Below, piece by piece: positions 35,214 through 40,839 of a stretch of DNA of 64,000 nucleotides; within the stretch, counting starts at the first letter, position 1; every line of letters starts with the position of its first letter. Where the stretch lies: contig JBDRCO010000003.1 in the NCBI GenBank assembly GCA_043821645.1, positions 224,001 to 288,000 of the forward strand, written 5' to 3'. The DNA is from Pseudomonadota bacterium. GTDB lineage: Bacteria; Myxococcota; JACRCW01; JAFGSX01. Made by a program: the position numbers and the translations under genes. Below the pieces are notes generated by a model. The model did not search any database. It saw only the letters and a list, made by a program, of their open reading frames with translations, and was not told where the DNA came from.

Positions 35214-36086
<873 letters not shown>

Positions 36087-36090
36087 GCGC

Positions 36091-36543
36091 TCAGCACCCG
36101 GAACGCACAGGCGCCGGCGTCGAGCCACCACTGCAGCCCGACGACACCGGGCGGGAGCTGCTCGAGGAGCTGCTGGTGCGCCGCGGCGCTGTGCGGGGCC
36201 TGGGAACCTTGCCCTCAGCCACGGCGTCGAGCAGGCGAACACCCAGGGGCGACAGGCGCTGGGCCTCCCCGTAGCCGATCTCGCCATCCTGGTTGGCGTC
36301 GATGCGGGCCACGGTGGCCCCGACGGTCTCGAGCGCCTTCTTCATCTTGTTGACCGAGGCGTAGCGCTGGGCGGCGGCGCTGCATCCCGTCGTCACCGAG
36401 CCGTCTTTTGCCACCGCGGCCAGAAAGGGATCCTCGATCTCGTCCTTCTTGATCTTGGTGCGGCCGTCCGCCAGCTTCTCGAGTTGCTTCTTGTAGGCCT
36501 CGATGCCCTTCATGGCGGCGTCCGTGCGAACTCTGTTGCTCAT
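36091..36543 (-). CDS. Hypothetical protein, candidate radical SAM substrate/RiPP precursor (EF-hand-like motif, Ser-rich tail with SGC motifs)
   Basis: RBS GGAGG; begins 11 bp after the rSAM stop; DANQDGEIGYGE; C-terminus TSSSSSSSRPVSSGCSGGSTPAPVRSGC*. Confidence 0.7.
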   Translation of the reverse strand: MSNRVRTDAAMKGIEAYKKQLEKLADGRTKIKKDEIEDPFLAAVAKDGSVTTGCSAAAQRYASVNKMKKALETVGATVARIDANQDGEIGYGEAQRLSPLGVRLLDAVAEGKVPRPRTAPRRTSSSSSSSRPVSSGCSGGSTPAPVRSGC

Positions 36544-36554
36544 GATCCCTCCGG

Positions 36555-37898
36555 TTAAAAGGTCGATACCTCGACGCTGTTGAGAACGCCTGAATCCCTG
36601 ACAGATGCCGATACCCCGGCACCCGGCCGGGCTGGCAGTCGATCACACCAGCTATCCGCGGCGCCGATGCAGCCGTGCGCGTCGAGCGCGCGGACGCGGC
36701 AGCCACCGCGGCAGATCTCGAGACGATCGCAGTGCGCGCACTCGTCTGGCGCCTGCAGTGCGCGCAGGGCCTTGAACGACGCACCCTCGCGCCACAGCTG
36801 CAGCAGGCTGTGCTCGCGCAGTGTGCCCGCTGCATGGCCCGCAGGAAGGTTGAGACAGGGTGTGACCACACCCGAGGGGGTCACACCGGCGACGATGCGT
36901 CCGGCCACACAGCCGAAGCCTTCGAAGTCCGGAGCTGTGCGCTCGTCGGGGTGAGGCGCGTCCAGGATCAGATCGCTTCCGGCCGCTGCGGCTCGCGCCT
37001 GCTCGACGGCCAGGACAAAGGACGCCCGATCACAGCTCAGCGCGTTCCCGTCGCGCAATGCCTCGCCCGCGGGATAGGCCGGCCGCAGCAGCAGGACCCG
37101 CGCTCCCTCGTGGTGCGCCAGGGCCACCATCTCGCCGACCCGGGAGCGGTTGAGCGGCGTGACCGTGAAGGAGATCGCGAAACCCGGTGCGTAGTGTCGG
37201 CGAAGCAGCTGCAAGCCACGCAAGGTCCTGTCGAAACTGCCCGCGCCGCGCATGCTGTCATTGGTAATTGCGTCGGGACCGTCGAGGCTCACCGCCAGGC
37301 CTGCCGGCTGGACCTCGGCGAGCCGCGACAGGATCTCGACCTGCAGCCGCGAGCCGTTGGTGTGCACGAAGCAGTCGATGCCCCGCTGCCGGGCATGGCC
37401 TACCACCTCGACGAGCTCGGGACGGAGGAAGGGCTCGCCGCCTCCCAGCACCAGCTTGAGGCAGCCGATGTGCGCCAGCTCGTCGACCAGTGCCAGCAAT
37501 TCGGGCAACGACAGCTCGTCGTTCGCCCGCCGGCCGCTGCTCGAGTAGCAGTGGCTGCACGAGAAGTTGCAGGCCTGGGTCAGACCCAGGTGCAGCACCA
37601 GCGGCGCCGCGGCCGCGCCGTCCAGCGGTTCGAGCTCCACCAGGTCCGCGTCGAGGGTCGAGGCCGGATCGATCGCGGTGAGTTCTCCGACTCTCGTGGC
37701 CGCCAGCGCTGTCCGTTCGGGGCCACAGGCCCGGGCCAGCACGGGGAGGACCTGGTGCAGGGGCCGGTGCCGGTTCTCGACAAGGGCGAAGCATTCGGCC
37801 GCGTCCAGGGCATGGTACTGGTGCGCAGCGCGGTCGTAGAGCAGACCGCGGGTCCCCTCGATGCGCAGCGCATGGCGTGGCACGGCGGCTGGGCTCAA
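36555..37898 (-). CDS. Radical SAM/SPASM-domain peptide-maturase-like enzyme with probable N-terminal RRE
   Basis: CNFSCSHC (CX3CX2C), GGGEPF, HTNG, VSLDG; SPASM CVAG...GVVTPC and CAHC-X5-C-RGG-C...DSWC; TTG start after AGGAG. Confidence 0.88.
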   Translation of the reverse strand: MSPAAVPRHALRIEGTRGLLYDRAAHQYHALDAAECFALVENRHRPLHQVLPVLARACGPERTALAATRVGELTAIDPASTLDADLVELEPLDGAAAAPLVLHLGLTQACNFSCSHCYSSSGRRANDELSLPELLALVDELAHIGCLKLVLGGGEPFLRPELVEVVGHARQRGIDCFVHTNGSRLQVEILSRLAEVQPAGLAVSLDGPDAITNDSMRGAGSFDRTLRGLQLLRRHYAPGFAISFTVTPLNRSRVGEMVALAHHEGARVLLLRPAYPAGEALRDGNALSCDRASFVLAVEQARAAAAGSDLILDAPHPDERTAPDFEGFGCVAGRIVAGVTPSGVVTPCLNLPAGHAAGTLREHSLLQLWREGASFKALRALQAPDECAHCDRLEICRGGCRVRALDAHGCIGAADSWCDRLPARPGAGVSASVRDSGVLNSVEVSTF

Positions 37899-37976
37899 GA
37901 GGCGCTCCTGGTGAAGGCGAACCGGTCCATAATATATTGTCCGCGCCCTAGATTTGGCCTCCCGGCGCCCGGCTGC

Positions 37977-39656
37977 TCAATGCCGGTTCTTGGGCCGGCG
38001 CCGGCGGCGTCGCTTCTTCTTTTTCTTCTTCTTCTTGACGCCCTGGTCTCGACTGCTCGCGTCGAGCTGTTCCGGGGCGGGGGGAGCGGCATCGCCGGAG
38101 CCTGCAGGCACGCCACTGTCGACGGGCAGGCCGGCGTCGACAGGCAGGGGGGCACCAGCGTCCGCGTCGTCTGCGTCGGAAACCAGCCCGGGCAGAGGGC
38201 CCACATCGAGGACCAGCGAGCCCACGGCGAGCACGACCAGGACCCCGCCCAGGAAGGCCACGATACGGGGCCAGCGCCGCTCGCGGACCCGCGTGCCGTG
38301 CAGGGTGCCGGGTGGTGCGTCAAGCCTTGGCGGATGTGTGGCGCCGGCCAGCGATGAGTCCTCACCTGGTTGCCACAGGGGTCTCTCGCCGGTGGGCTGT
38401 GCACCCTCGAGGCGCGAGCCGTCGAGGTGGCGCAGCGCCACGTGCACGCCCGAGGCCTGCAGGTTGGTGACGATGTTGGTGGCGCGGTGGTGAATGTTGC
38501 TGACCTCGCGCCAGTGGGTCGGCGGCGTGAAGCCCGTGACCATCGTGCTCGACGAGGCCTCCTCGGGGGCGTCCATCTCCAGGGTGCCGCCATGGCCCGC
38601 CACGGCCATCGCCGGAGGGGGCAGGGGGGCGGCCGCCGGCAGGCTCTGGGGACCGCTCAGGCTCTCGACCCACACCCTCAGGGAGTCCGTCTCCTTGGGA
38701 TAGAGCTGATTCATGAACGCGGCCACGTGTCGCGACGTCACGGCCGGACCGCTGTCGCTGATGAAGCGCTCGAGGGCCTGCCGCAGCTCGTCGGCACTGC
38801 GATAGCGCTGGTCGCGATCGCGCGCGAGGCAGCGCAGGCAGATGGCCTCGAGGCCGGCGGGGATCTGCGCATTGTACGACCGCGGTGGTCGAGGTTCGCT
38901 GCGCATCATCTGTTCGATGAGCTGGTCGGTCGAGCGCACCGAGTAGGGAAACTGCGCCGTCAGGAACAGGTACAGCGTGACCCCCAGGGCGTACAGGTCG
39001 GCGCGTGCGTCCAGCGCCTCGCCGCGGATGGCCTCGGGTGCCAGGTAGTTGAGCTTGCCCTTGACCACGCCATGCTGGGTGGTGTCAGGCGTCATGCGCG
39101 CCTTGGCCACCCCGAAGTCCACGACCTTGACCCGGCCGTCGAAGCACACGATCACGTTCTCCGGGCTCATGTCCCGGTGCACCAGTCGCAGTGGCTGACC
39201 CTGGGCATCGGTGAGAATGTGGGCGTGGTGGAGACCGGCCGCGGTGTCGGCGACGATGCGCGCCAGCACCGTGTGCGGGACCCAGAAGCCGCCGGTGTCA
39301 CAGGTCTTGCCCACAGCGAGCAGGGTCTTGCCGTTGAGAAACTCCATGGCCAGCAGCAGCTCGCCCTCGGTGCGCGCCAGCTCGTGCACGTCCACCACGC
39401 TGCCGTGATGGATCATCGACGCCAGCTGTGCCTCGTTGACGAACATGGTCTCGAAGCGCGGATCCGCCAGCAGGTGTGGCCGCACACGCTTGAGGACCAC
39501 CACCTGATCCGTGGGTGGCCGCTCGAGATCGCGCGCCAGGTAGACCTCGGCCATGCCACCCTCGGCCAGCAGGCCCAGGACCCTGTAGTGCAGCAGGACC
39601 TGGCCTGGCAGGAGAGGCACGGTACTTGTCAGGTCGGTGGTCATGGTCGATGCCAT
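37977..39656 (-). CDS. Membrane-anchored Hanks-type Ser/Thr protein kinase
   Basis: GGMAEVY, VVLK, HRDMSPEN, DFGVAK, GKLNYLAPE, DLYALG; single TM helix near the C-terminus; polybasic tail. Confidence 0.93.
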   Translation of the reverse strand: MASTMTTDLTSTVPLLPGQVLLHYRVLGLLAEGGMAEVYLARDLERPPTDQVVVLKRVRPHLLADPRFETMFVNEAQLASMIHHGSVVDVHELARTEGELLLAMEFLNGKTLLAVGKTCDTGGFWVPHTVLARIVADTAAGLHHAHILTDAQGQPLRLVHRDMSPENVIVCFDGRVKVVDFGVAKARMTPDTTQHGVVKGKLNYLAPEAIRGEALDARADLYALGVTLYLFLTAQFPYSVRSTDQLIEQMMRSEPRPPRSYNAQIPAGLEAICLRCLARDRDQRYRSADELRQALERFISDSGPAVTSRHVAAFMNQLYPKETDSLRVWVESLSGPQSLPAAAPLPPPAMAVAGHGGTLEMDAPEEASSSTMVTGFTPPTHWREVSNIHHRATNIVTNLQASGVHVALRHLDGSRLEGAQPTGERPLWQPGEDSSLAGATHPPRLDAPPGTLHGTRVRERRWPRIVAFLGGVLVVLAVGSLVLDVGPLPGLVSDADDADAGAPLPVDAGLPVDSGVPAGSGDAAPPAPEQLDASSRDQGVKKKKKKKKRRRRRRPKNRH

Positions 39657-39756
39657 GCTACTAGAGCCTGGCCACCACACAAGAGGGGCGCGGTGGGGCT
39701 TGACGCGTCGGGCCGCTCCGGGTCATATGCGGTCGCAGAGACCGTCGAGGGCCCGC

Positions 39757-40296
39757 ATGTCGACCGAGCAGCAGACCATCCGCGACTTCATCGATACCGC
39801 GCGCAACGTGACGGCCGAGTCCTTCGAGAAGCGCTATCTCCACCCCTTCTTGCTCGGGCGCGAGGTGCTCGAGGAGGAGTTCAGCTTCGCCACGGCCATC
39901 GCCACCGTCGACGAGATGGAAAGGGGTGACCGGCAGACCGGCCTGCGCATCCGGGACTGGGTGTTGCCGGTGCAGCGGCCCGAGGGGGCCAGCAAGGTCG
40001 GCAGCCTGCGCGTGTTCGTGGGACGGGCCTCGAACAACGATCTGAGCATCCCCCATCCGACGGTGAGCAAGCTGCACGCTTATTTCACCCTGGAAGGCAG
40101 CCGCTGGTGGATCGTCGACGTGGGATCCTCCAACGGCACCACGGTCAATGGCATGAAGGCTCCCGCACGCGCCAAGACTGCCGTCTACGACAAGGATGTG
40201 GTGGTGTTCGGCCGCTGTGCCTTTTCGTTCCTGTTGCCGCGCAGCCTCTACGAGCTGGTCGCGAGCATGGCCAGTGCCATCCAGCCCACGGACTGA
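39757..40296 (+). CDS. FHA-domain protein
   Basis: VGRASNNDLSIPHPTVSKLHA, DVGSSNGT. Confidence 0.9.
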   Translation: MSTEQQTIRDFIDTARNVTAESFEKRYLHPFLLGREVLEEEFSFATAIATVDEMERGDRQTGLRIRDWVLPVQRPEGASKVGSLRVFVGRASNNDLSIPHPTVSKLHAYFTLEGSRWWIVDVGSSNGTTVNGMKAPARAKTAVYDKDVVVFGRCAFSFLLPRSLYELVASMASAIQPTD

Positions 40297-40299
40297 GCG

Positions 40300-40839
40300 A
40301 TGAGCCAGGGTAACGAGCCCTTGCGGCTCATGAGTCTGCTGGAACTCGCGCGCAAGGCTACCCCTGACGTGTTTGCTGTGCGCCTGGGTGGCGGACCCGT
40401 GCTGGTGCGTCAACAGCCCGCGGAGGAGGACGAGGACGGGTGGTCCTTCAACACCGCGTCCCGTCTGACCGCGGTGGTGGACACGGCGCCTGGTCGCGAG
40501 CTCGTGCTGCACAGTGATGATCTCGTGCACGTGGTGCGCAAGGCCCACGTGGGCGCGGCCTTTGCCCGCACCATTCTCATAGGTCGGGCAGACTCCAATG
40601 ACATCCGGCTGCCACATCCCAGCGTGTCCAAGCTCCACGCTCGAATCCAGCGCGATCCTCAGGACCGCTACCTGCTGTCGGATGCAGCGTCCCAGAACGG
40701 GACCCAGGTCGAGGGTCGCCGACTGGAAGCGGACGAGTCCGTGGAACTCACCGAGGGTGCCTGGATTCGGATGGGGGACCTCAGCATGTGCTACCTCACC
40801 CTGGACCGCTTTTACGAGGTCGTCCGGCGCATCCACTGA
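40300..40839 (+). CDS. FHA-domain protein (paralogue of the preceding gene)
   Basis: IGRADSNDIRLPHPSVSKLHA, DAASQNGT. Confidence 0.9.
   Translation: MSQGNEPLRLMSLLELARKATPDVFAVRLGGGPVLVRQQPAEEDEDGWSFNTASRLTAVVDTAPGRELVLHSDDLVHVVRKAHVGAAFARTILIGRADSNDIRLPHPSVSKLHARIQRDPQDRYLLSDAASQNGTQVEGRRLEADESVELTEGAWIRMGDLSMCYLTLDRFYEVVRRIH

Follow-up and report, generated by a model that had tools for sequence, protein, structure and literature searches.

We analyzed a stretch of 64,000 nucleotides (nt), hereafter the window, from a bacterial genome assigned to the Myxococcota (assembly GCA_043821645.1, contig JBDRCO010000003.1, positions 224,001 to 288,000). Two adjacent genes on its minus strand encode a radical S-adenosylmethionine (SAM)/SPASM enzyme and a smaller partner protein (Table 1). 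An original prediction, made from the sequence alone, had described them as a tight two-gene arrangement with an 11-bp gap and a ribosome-binding site for each gene, and the open reading frames and the sequence confirm this layout: besides the site within the spacer, an AGGAG at positions 37905-37909 lies 6 nt 5' of the TTG start of the enzyme gene. Enzyme and partner constitute a conserved two-gene unit in myxobacteria, and this cassette probably makes a chemically modified peptide or protein.

Table 1. Features of the two-gene cassette, in window coordinates.
Feature	Position	Strand	Basis or remarks
Radical SAM/SPASM enzyme gene	36555..37898	-	Open reading frame, 447 amino acids (aa), TTG start
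Candidate RiPP (peptide made on the ribosome and modified after translation) recognition element (RRE), N-terminal domain of the enzyme, residues 8-95	37614..37877	-	Conserved across 40 homologues
CX3CX2C motif C110/C114/C117 for the SAM-binding 4Fe-4S cluster	37548..37571	-	Invariant in 40/40 aligned sequences
SPASM domain, seven invariant cysteines C330...C418	36645..36911	-	Pfam and alignment of 40 homologues
Spacer of 11 nt between enzyme gene and partner gene	36544-36554	-	Holds GGAGG, the ribosome-binding site of the partner gene
Partner/precursor gene, Form B	36091..36543	-	Open reading frame, 150 aa, ATG start
First T-G-C site of the partner, T52-G53-C54	36382..36390	-	Within helical domain; alignments A1 and A4 show C54 as invariant
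EF-hand-type loop DANQDGEIGYGE, residues 82-93	36265..36300	-	Fits canonical loop pattern
Helix RLSPLGVRLLDAVAEG, residues 96-111	36211..36258	-	Candidate recognition sequence; sole non-Cys element common with short partners
Low-complexity Arg/Pro/Ser tail with S-G-C 135-137 and C-terminal S-G-C 148-150	36094..36207	-	
AT-rich patch, dodecamer	37929-37940	-	About 30 nt upstream of the TTG start; plus strand reads ATAATATATTGT; candidate -10 region

Pfam assigns residues 106-258 of the enzyme to Radical_SAM (E-value 2.5e-25; 90 bits versus a cut-off of 29.5) and residues 330-391 to SPASM (1.4e-06; 28.9 bits versus a cut-off of 21.5), and makes no assignment for residues 1-105. The enzyme belongs to the radical SAM superfamily (PF04055) and to its SPASM subfamily (PF13186). 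Members of the latter follow the consensus CX9-15GX4C...CX2CX5CX3C...C and carry two auxiliary clusters; the window enzyme has the spacing C330-X12-G343-X4-C348, C387-X2-C390-X5-C396-X3-C400 and C418, every position of which is invariant. About 60 full-length homologues (45-65% identity) were identified, and in an alignment of 40 homologues all ten cluster cysteines are invariant. The CX3CX2C motif, the complete seven-cysteine SPASM motif and the N-terminal extension that had been picked out from the sequence are thus all present.

The three cysteines of the window partner all lie in (S/T)-G-C motifs, C54 in a TGC and both C137 and C150, the last residue of the protein, in an SGC. An Arg/Pro linker leads, in the C-terminal part of the partner, to a Ser run and the tail SSGCSGGSTPAPVRSGC; together with the EF-hand-like loop and the three motif cysteines, the features ascribed to this protein beforehand can all be read from its sequence. 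This motif content exceeds what chance would give: in the 63,081 six-frame open frames of at least 60 aa from the window genome, [ST]GC accounts for 1.66% of cysteines. An EF-hand loop of canonical pattern (D-x-[DNS]-x-[DNS]-G-x-[ILV]-x3-[ED]) occurs 0.0017 times per 150 aa in these frames. Six of these frames end in [ST]GC and hold at least two such motifs in their last 120 residues, and the five other than the partner are Cys-rich, with many cysteines outside [ST]GC. The partner occurs once in the window genome, and its gene shows a ratio of nonsynonymous to synonymous substitution rates of 0.29 relative to its L002 orthologue (112 codons). The window partner matches no Pfam or NCBIfam family, precursor families included, at E <= 1, in agreement with the earlier impression that it does not resemble PqqA, MftA, SCIFF or Nif11/NHLP precursors.

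The arrangement extends well beyond the window genome. An adjacent partner is encoded in 18 of 21 orthologous enzyme loci (12 of 14 on genome contigs and 6 of 7 on metagenome contigs), so that the neighbour on which the original prediction staked its case is present in most of them. The 14 full-length loci on genome contigs show 43-65% identity and all derive from Myxococcota metagenome-assembled genomes. In 11 of the 12 that carry a partner, the partner gene is on the same strand and downstream of the enzyme gene; in the remaining one (L011) it is upstream and overlaps the enzyme gene. In L008, the downstream partner is cut by the contig end. Gene spacing, determined in 11 loci, varies between an overlap of 14 nt and a gap of 15 nt, with six loci presenting a 4-nt overlap of the ATGA type. 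All-against-all clustering of the open reading frames of 15 loci (the window included) recovered the enzyme in 15/15 and the partner in 13/15. The other widespread clusters (two in 15/15 loci and one in 10) coincide with the enzyme gene but run on its opposite strand, and are taken as alternative-frame shadows, and further genes are common solely to three closely syntenic loci. No protease or transporter/exporter is conserved beside the pair in these 15 loci, as had been noted for the window, and the loci share enzyme and partner alone, with no clustering with Ahb/NirJ or sulfatase genes. In the three syntenic loci (L003:5656-6790, L012:5612-7468 and L015:5629-7611; Archangiaceae/Myxococcaceae), the cassette is followed by a small protein with a signal-peptide-like hydrophobic N-terminus and (H/N)VNSP repeats and then by a conserved protein of 286-289 aa, with a conserved frame of about 205-228 aa in between in L012 and L015. 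These genes probably reflect local synteny, limited to the three loci.

In a sample of 401 genomes of the phylum, the enzyme was detected in 14 genomes and the partner in 12 (five with Form B and seven with Form A, the two forms described below), all of them within the 14 enzyme-bearing genomes; none of the 387 genomes without the enzyme yielded a partner among the best 8 to 12 candidates scored per genome, although related genomes in this sample are not independent. As positive controls, the partner was recovered in 4/4 and 5/5 genomes known to carry it. Each of these nine genomes presented one strong partner match, adjoining the enzyme gene, with an additional weak match (E 5.8e-4) in G361. 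Neither partner profile matched anything in the two enzyme-bearing genomes that lack a partner, which are 97% and 93% complete. The pairing of enzyme and partner is not due to chance.

A maximum-likelihood tree of 22 enzymes places the 19 partner-linked enzymes in one clade (support 100/100) and the three partner-less enzymes in a separate clade (100/100) with a branch length of 1.46. Of the ten enzymes linked to Form A, nine make up a clade (98/95) nested among those linked to Form B, which, with a midpoint root, points to an origin of the short form through loss of the Form B domain. The partner-less enzymes (L013, L014 and L101) each have a convergent neighbour (L013:5363-6277(-), L014:5332-6579(-) and L101:3809-5158(-)); these neighbours are homologous to one another (39-51% identity over 199-300 aa) and match no Pfam family. 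That of L013 holds NTGYG twice and a terminal DGYGS, that of L014 an internal SNSYGQ, and that of L101 the motifs ASSYGS and ASYGV and, at its end, SSSYGS. NTGYG is the counterpart of STGCG with Tyr replacing Cys. We considered whether these (S/G)-Y-G neighbours are diverged Form B partners and rejected this, the hhalign probability being a non-significant 0.7%.

The partner family proved larger and more diverse than direct searches indicated. A word-based search of 5.8 billion proteins returned three relatives, and an exhaustive profile search of 1.84 billion representatives returned 78 proteins at E <= 0.001, about 25 of which are family members and the remainder multi-EF-hand proteins aligned solely at the loop region. 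A short form (Form A) was recognised by reading the DNA beside enzyme orthologues, and a Form A profile found 23 proteins, most of them unnamed at source and the others called only 'hypothetical protein'. Form A partners are peptides of 75-131 aa with a high content of T, G, S, K, P and A; their isoelectric points are 10.5-12 and their net charges +16 to +23, and they look disordered and have no domain. In order along the chain they hold two x-S/A-T-G-C-G sites, a G-W-K element, a (L/V)S..(R)....L(L/E)KA element, one to three more sites and a terminal R-T-G-C. Form B, to which the window partner belongs, has an N-terminal helical domain with one T-G-C site, in 18 of 23 members a single EF-hand-type loop rather than a pair, and a conserved LSPLAARLL helix. 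The tail that follows contains between one and five sites and closes with (S/T)-G-C. Eight other partners compared with NCBIfam and Pfam precursor models gave chance-level rows (E >= 2).

The cysteine motif, repeated one to six times per partner, unites the two forms. Over both, Thr or Ser occupies position -2 in 155 of 163 cysteines and Gly position -1 in 144, and 40 of 45 proteins have a C-terminal Cys, so that the (S/T)-G-C motif, on whose conservation the original prediction depended, is kept throughout the family. In Form A, the counts are 91/91 for Thr/Ser at -2 and 87/91 for Gly at -1, with Gly also at +1 in 65 of 70 non-terminal cysteines and 21 of 22 proteins ending in Cys (the exception is a partial record). 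The corresponding figures for Form B are 64/72 and 57/72, with 19 of 23 proteins ending in Cys and three more having a Cys within their last four residues. The tails of the two forms align with an hhalign probability of 95.4% (E 1.8e-8), which supports their homology. Some larger relatives depart from the common layout. In P0003 and P0004, about 65-70 aa are inserted ahead of the Cys tail; P0136 carries a long acidic extension with SSGC at its end; and in P0131 (517 aa) and P0146 (366 aa) the N-terminal domain is repeated and the terminal Cys is absent, P0131 ending in TYGLGS.

The original prediction had also proposed a folded, possibly Ca-binding leader. The canonical EF-hand loop pattern is present in 18 of 23 Form B partners, the window partner among them; the domain is not essential to the system, since about half of the partners are Form A and lack it. 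Pfam EF-hand_5/_1/_6 models matched 4/8 partners, all below the gathering score, with no match to the window protein, and a partner profile searched against the Protein Data Bank (PDB) had EF-hand proteins as best matches (lanmodulin, 5.3e-4), while the template-modeling (TM) score of the partner in the ESM Atlas reached only 0.35-0.37. Apart from the cysteine motifs, the element present in both forms is the LS...LL helix, for which a pattern chosen post hoc ([LVM]S-x5/6-[LF] with one additional residue taken from a set) matches 18/22 Form A and 22/23 Form B partners. In the window protein this helix, RLSPLGVRLLDAVAEG, is a candidate recognition element. The idea that the LS...LL helix of short partners is homologous to the exit helix of the EF-hand gained no support, as hhalign left it unaligned. 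None of the partners has a hydrophobic segment or signal peptide (maximum 19-residue hydropathy 1.23).

These observations suggest that the two genes are, with high probability, a self-contained RiPP-like maturase/precursor pair in which the enzyme modifies each (S/T)-G-C cysteine, a local thioether being the favoured product. We infer that the partner is the substrate and that its cysteines are the targets; the earlier proposal that the second gene encodes a protein destined for modification gains support from the gene pairing and from the conservation of the motif. The enzyme would bind the 150-aa partner via the candidate RRE and the LS...LL helix, and would use a 5'-deoxyadenosyl radical to modify the Cys of each motif (C54, C137 and C150). 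Because the linkers are of varying length and composition and the protein ends at the last Cys, the modification is expected to be local to each motif, with no need for a downstream acceptor. Its product would most likely be a small thioether ring in which the sulfur of the Cys is bonded either to the Thr/Ser at -2 or to the alpha-carbon of a flanking Gly, and an auxiliary cluster would hold the thiol, as in sacti- and ranthisynthases. Of the characterised Cys-directed RRE-SPASM enzymes in the literature consulted, nearly all form thioethers, namely SkfB, CteB, StsB, NxxcB and CrpC, as described in PMC6231123, PMC10288494, PMC9389541 and PMC13692751. Since the pair has neither a protease nor an exporter conserved next to it and signal peptides are absent from the partners, a retained modified protein is expected. 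The product would probably stay in the cell, where it may bind metal or, through its basic chain, polyanions.

A different division of labour, in which the partner is an accessory protein (a Ca-sensing regulator, a chaperone or a cluster donor) and the enzyme substrate is encoded elsewhere, would agree with the folded appearance of the Form B helical domain and its frequent EF-hand-type loop, and with a distant enzyme clade that operates without such a partner. It fits poorly with the small, disordered-looking and highly basic peptides that make up about half of the family, with the conservation of the Cys motif and C-terminal Cys, but not of the domain, across both forms, and with the single strong partner match beside the enzyme gene in each of the nine control genomes. 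We therefore regard an accessory role as very unlikely.

The N-terminal domain of the enzyme, which had been predicted to be a PqqD-like RRE, would take part in recognition of the partner. When the full-length enzyme family profile was compared with solved structures, the best match was SkfB (PDB 6EFN, E 5.4e-35), with an alignment that starts at query position 8; SuiB aligned from query position 5 and CteB from position 48. Query residues 8-105 aligned to SkfB residues 17-116, a range that overlaps the RRE of SkfB, given as residues 12-105 in PMC6231123, and the SuiB alignment began at SuiB residue 26. As leads only, an ESM Atlas feature search with the N-terminal domain returned PqqD clusters as 25 of 30 matches (score 0.90), with TM scores (by query) of 0.53-0.66 to PqqD-type clusters, the stand-alone chaperones among these clusters scoring 0.53-0.59.

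Several results nevertheless weigh against the maturase/precursor interpretation or its favoured chemistry. The PqqD Pfam model (PF05402) matched neither the window N-terminal domain at E <= 10 nor any of 12 orthologous N-terminal domains, hhalign of this domain against 15 PqqD domains from related genomes gave a probability of 2%, and a profile of the isolated domain searched against the PDB found no RRE, with chance-level rows at E >= 0.07. The alignments to the SkfB and SuiB RREs and the Atlas look-alikes speak for the predicted RRE and the PqqD comparisons do not; the assignment is weaker than originally put, and we consider the domain RRE-like, with moderate confidence. Three orthologous loci, those of the distant clade, have no partner. 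The window enzyme scores below cut-off for every thioether family tested, with 111.8 bits versus 625 for StsB (NF045574) and 28 bits versus 525 for the CrpC family (TIGR04463). The six catalytic-site proximity positions, as defined in section 7 of PMC10288494 and mapped onto the window enzyme, are occupied by Y118, G152, H179, S204, L349 and N350; four of these are invariant and two nearly so in the 40 homologues. Of this Y-G-H-S-L-N set, two of six residues are common to StsB (Y-T-I-S-K-L), two to SkfB (Y-T-F-S-Q-L), one to CteB (F-F-T-S-H-Q) and one to PqqE (S-S-I-S-H-A). By this mapping, the predicted active-site lining differs from those of all four enzymes, which leaves room for new chemistry. 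A radical thioether between positions i and i-2 is without precedent in the literature consulted on this chemistry. Lastly, the near-invariant Gly-Cys and the tolerated C-terminal position suit a thio-oxazole of the SbtM type at least equally well.

The genome of the window (G000) also encodes three PqqD-family domains, one of them directly upstream of another radical SAM gene on C87, and two further MftC-like radical SAM/SPASM genes (about 145 bits); these genes map to C87:182436-183031, C101:3655-4647, C138:12654-13643, C99:2252-2449 and C3:8648-8821. Given these domains and MftC-like genes, the window genome holds several other candidate peptide-modifying clusters.

The thio-oxazole alternative keeps the enzyme/substrate pair and has each Gly-Cys oxidised to a 5-thio-oxazole, as by the thio(seleno)oxazole maturase SbtM, yielding a multi-site protein for soft metals such as copper and thus a radical SAM counterpart of the MNIO bufferins and oxazolins. 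The prevalence of Gly at -1 in both forms and at +1 in Form A gives T-G-C-G sites that resemble the GGUG site of SbtM, itself a SPASM enzyme, where, according to PMC9204691, the Gly-Cys(Sec) unit is modified with use of the Gly carbonyl; by our own reasoning, this reaction needs no residue after the Cys and would suit a C-terminal one. The window enzyme aligns to the SbtM model (TIGR04082) over residues 102-402 with 81.4 bits, but this is far under the cut-off of 350 and lower than its MftC, GeoRSP, StsB and PqqE scores, and the SbtM precursors described in PMC9204691 carry selenocysteine, occur in Geobacter and Desulfobacteria strains and have no Thr/Ser at -2. The strict Thr/Ser at that position is left unexplained by a thio-oxazole, and SbtM is the sole radical SAM enzyme we met with such chemistry, whereas many Cys-directed RRE-SPASM enzymes make thioethers. 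A similar balance emerges from the MNIO Buf_EGKCG and oxazolin precursors, compared by description only: as described in PMC12452194, these share repeated short Cys-Gly motifs, variable linkers and, in Buf_EGKCG|EF-hand_5 precursors, fusion to EF-hand domains, yet they are served by a DUF692/MNIO enzyme, the Buf1, Buf2 and Buf_EGKCG precursor families bear signal peptides, which our partners lack, and the EF-hand chimaeras have a predicted transmembrane helix. We hold the thio-oxazole to be possible but not likely. Within the enzyme/substrate interpretation, about one half of the weight falls on a thioether, about one quarter on a thio-oxazole and the rest on other chemistry; the thioether crosslink put forward originally fits the motif, but as only one of at least two fitting options.

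No named enzyme family in NCBIfam has a model whose cut-off the window enzyme reaches. The best match is MftC (TIGR03962; 175.5 bits versus a cut-off of 265, E 1.6e-51); further scores include those to NirJ2 (145.5 versus 500), AhbD (137.3 versus 500), GeoRSP (115.5 versus 400) and PqqE (108.8 versus 381). The MftC match, together with the C-terminal Cys of most partners, raises the alternative of an MftC-like oxidative decarboxylation of the terminal Cys, perhaps followed by a crosslink, that would start a small cofactor or signal, the internal motifs being cores released by cleavage. The score is below the MftC cut-off, though, the 15 loci show no conserved MftB/D/E/F-like or peptidase gene next to the pair, and the same motif is conserved internally, where decarboxylation cannot happen. 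In 151 sampled genomes of the phylum, no true MftC scored over the cut-off, so that none entered the active-site mapping either. StsB, described in PMC10288494 as MftC-like overall but a sactisynthase, also makes clear that the reaction cannot be predicted from an overall resemblance to MftC. This alternative is, in our view, highly improbable.

Other assignments of the enzyme were rejected. Its scores to the heme d1 and heme b synthases NirJ, NirJ2 and AhbC/D (145.5, 137.3, 113.7 and 99 bits, versus cut-offs of 500-650) arise mostly from the radical SAM core only, and tetrapyrrole genes are neither neighbours in the window nor conserved among the loci. Anaerobic sulfatase-maturating enzymes act on C/S-X-P/A-X-R in a sulfatase; their PDB match to the window enzyme is confined to the core (62.5 bits in two stretches, best at query 107-263), the partner is devoid of C-X-P-X-R, and no sulfatase gene is conserved nearby. 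A role in defence was suggested only by a generic cross-match of the radical SAM core (residues 104-227) to viperins in PADLOC.

Comparison with characterised systems places the preferred maturase/precursor pair among Cys-directed enzymes while setting it apart from each. SkfB, the sporulation killing factor sactisynthase, likewise has an N-terminal RRE (a candidate one in our case) followed by a radical SAM core and acts on Cys of a co-encoded peptide (as described in PMC6231123), but it has a Twitch domain with one auxiliary cluster instead of a full SPASM domain, and its precursor SkfA is unrelated. StsB resembles the window enzyme in combining a top named-family score to MftC with a Cys-bearing peptide as partner, and in BlaA, a related substrate treated in the StsB paper, the sactionine acceptors are Gly residues, at their alpha-carbons (as reported in PMC10288494). 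CrpC and CrpA of Methanococcus voltae are alike in joining RRE, radical SAM and SPASM domains with thioethers on a larger, adjacently encoded protein that has a repeated C-terminal Cys motif, and the N-terminal part of CrpA aids engagement; the CrpA motif described in PMC13692751 is C-X-X-Q/D, with the acceptor after the Cys and 17-residue repeats, whereas the partners have (S/T)-G-C, variable linkers and a terminal Cys. NxxcB, an NxxC ranthipeptide synthase compared by description only, joins Cys by a local thioether to an acceptor that lies upstream of it in a short motif, but its acceptor is the Asn at -3 and its cluster is streptococcal and quorum-sensing-linked (as described in PMC9389541).

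In kind, the pair is a radical SAM/SPASM maturase with its precursor. New within the searches made are the precursor family, its motif, the C-terminal Cys, the sites flanking the only other conserved element, and an EF-hand-type domain that is optional. The partner is not covered by any model in Pfam or NCBIfam release 20, no description of the enzyme/partner family was found in 8.1 million PMC papers and 0.36 million preprints (subscription journals and supplementary tables not covered), and the strings STGCG and VSTGC did not occur among the literature matches listed. The enzyme cluster may have been listed earlier, for example in the compendium of about 15,000 RiPP-linked radical SAM proteins of PMC10288494.

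RRE-bearing radical SAM/SPASM enzymes are a main source of new peptide chemistry, and overall similarity does not predict their reactions. The system described here is cleanly bounded, with two genes and a very simple and strictly conserved Thr/Ser-Gly-Cys target motif, and its putative substrates vary from peptides of 75 aa up to proteins that bear a domain. Should the product be a basic protein with thio-oxazoles or thioethers that is kept in the cell, RiPP-type tailoring would extend to cytoplasmic proteins of predatory soil and groundwater bacteria. A bolder proposal, which we advance as speculation and consider rather unlikely in its entirety, is that these proteins are a Myxococcota-restricted class of radical-SAM-tailored proteins, in which every (S/T)-G-C becomes a thio-oxazole or other local heterocycle or ring and an internal recognition helix is flanked by sites; the polycationic intracellular product would bind metal or nucleic acid, the window form would be coupled to a Ca-type EF-hand switch, and the class would be the radical SAM counterpart of MNIO bufferins.

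Regarding expression of the cassette, a promoter-like AT-rich element had been predicted upstream of the enzyme gene. The AT-rich patch is present, and because a consensus scan of positions 35800-38300 found no sigma-70-type promoter it stays only a candidate -10 element; the same scan found no minus-strand terminator, and Rfam returned no RNA family at E <= 1 in positions 35900-38200. One metatranscriptome run contains a 209-nt contig that exactly matches positions 36533-36741, with just 11 nt within the partner gene and the rest in the 3' end of the enzyme gene. This contig proves neither transcription nor co-transcription, as DNA carry-over is possible. Contigs matching the cassette (36091-37987) at >=99% identity were found in two DNA runs from different studies, labelled groundwater and biofilm, the groundwater run perhaps being the sample from which the window derives; low-share sequencing runs were not used for habitat.

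Two genes, for a BKACE protein and a carboxyltransferase, lie downstream of the cassette and convergent with it. On its upstream side, the same strand carries a Ser/Thr kinase gene (37977..39680, minus strand), whose stop lies 78 nt before the start codon of the enzyme and which is not kept beside the cassette in other loci. The C-terminal end of the kinase (37977-38040, minus strand) is a run of eight Lys and six Arg (KKKKKKKKRRRRRRPKNRH). Two adjacent FHA-domain genes (39637-40839, plus strand) diverge from the kinase gene, an arrangement that is a common signalling layout in Myxococcota.

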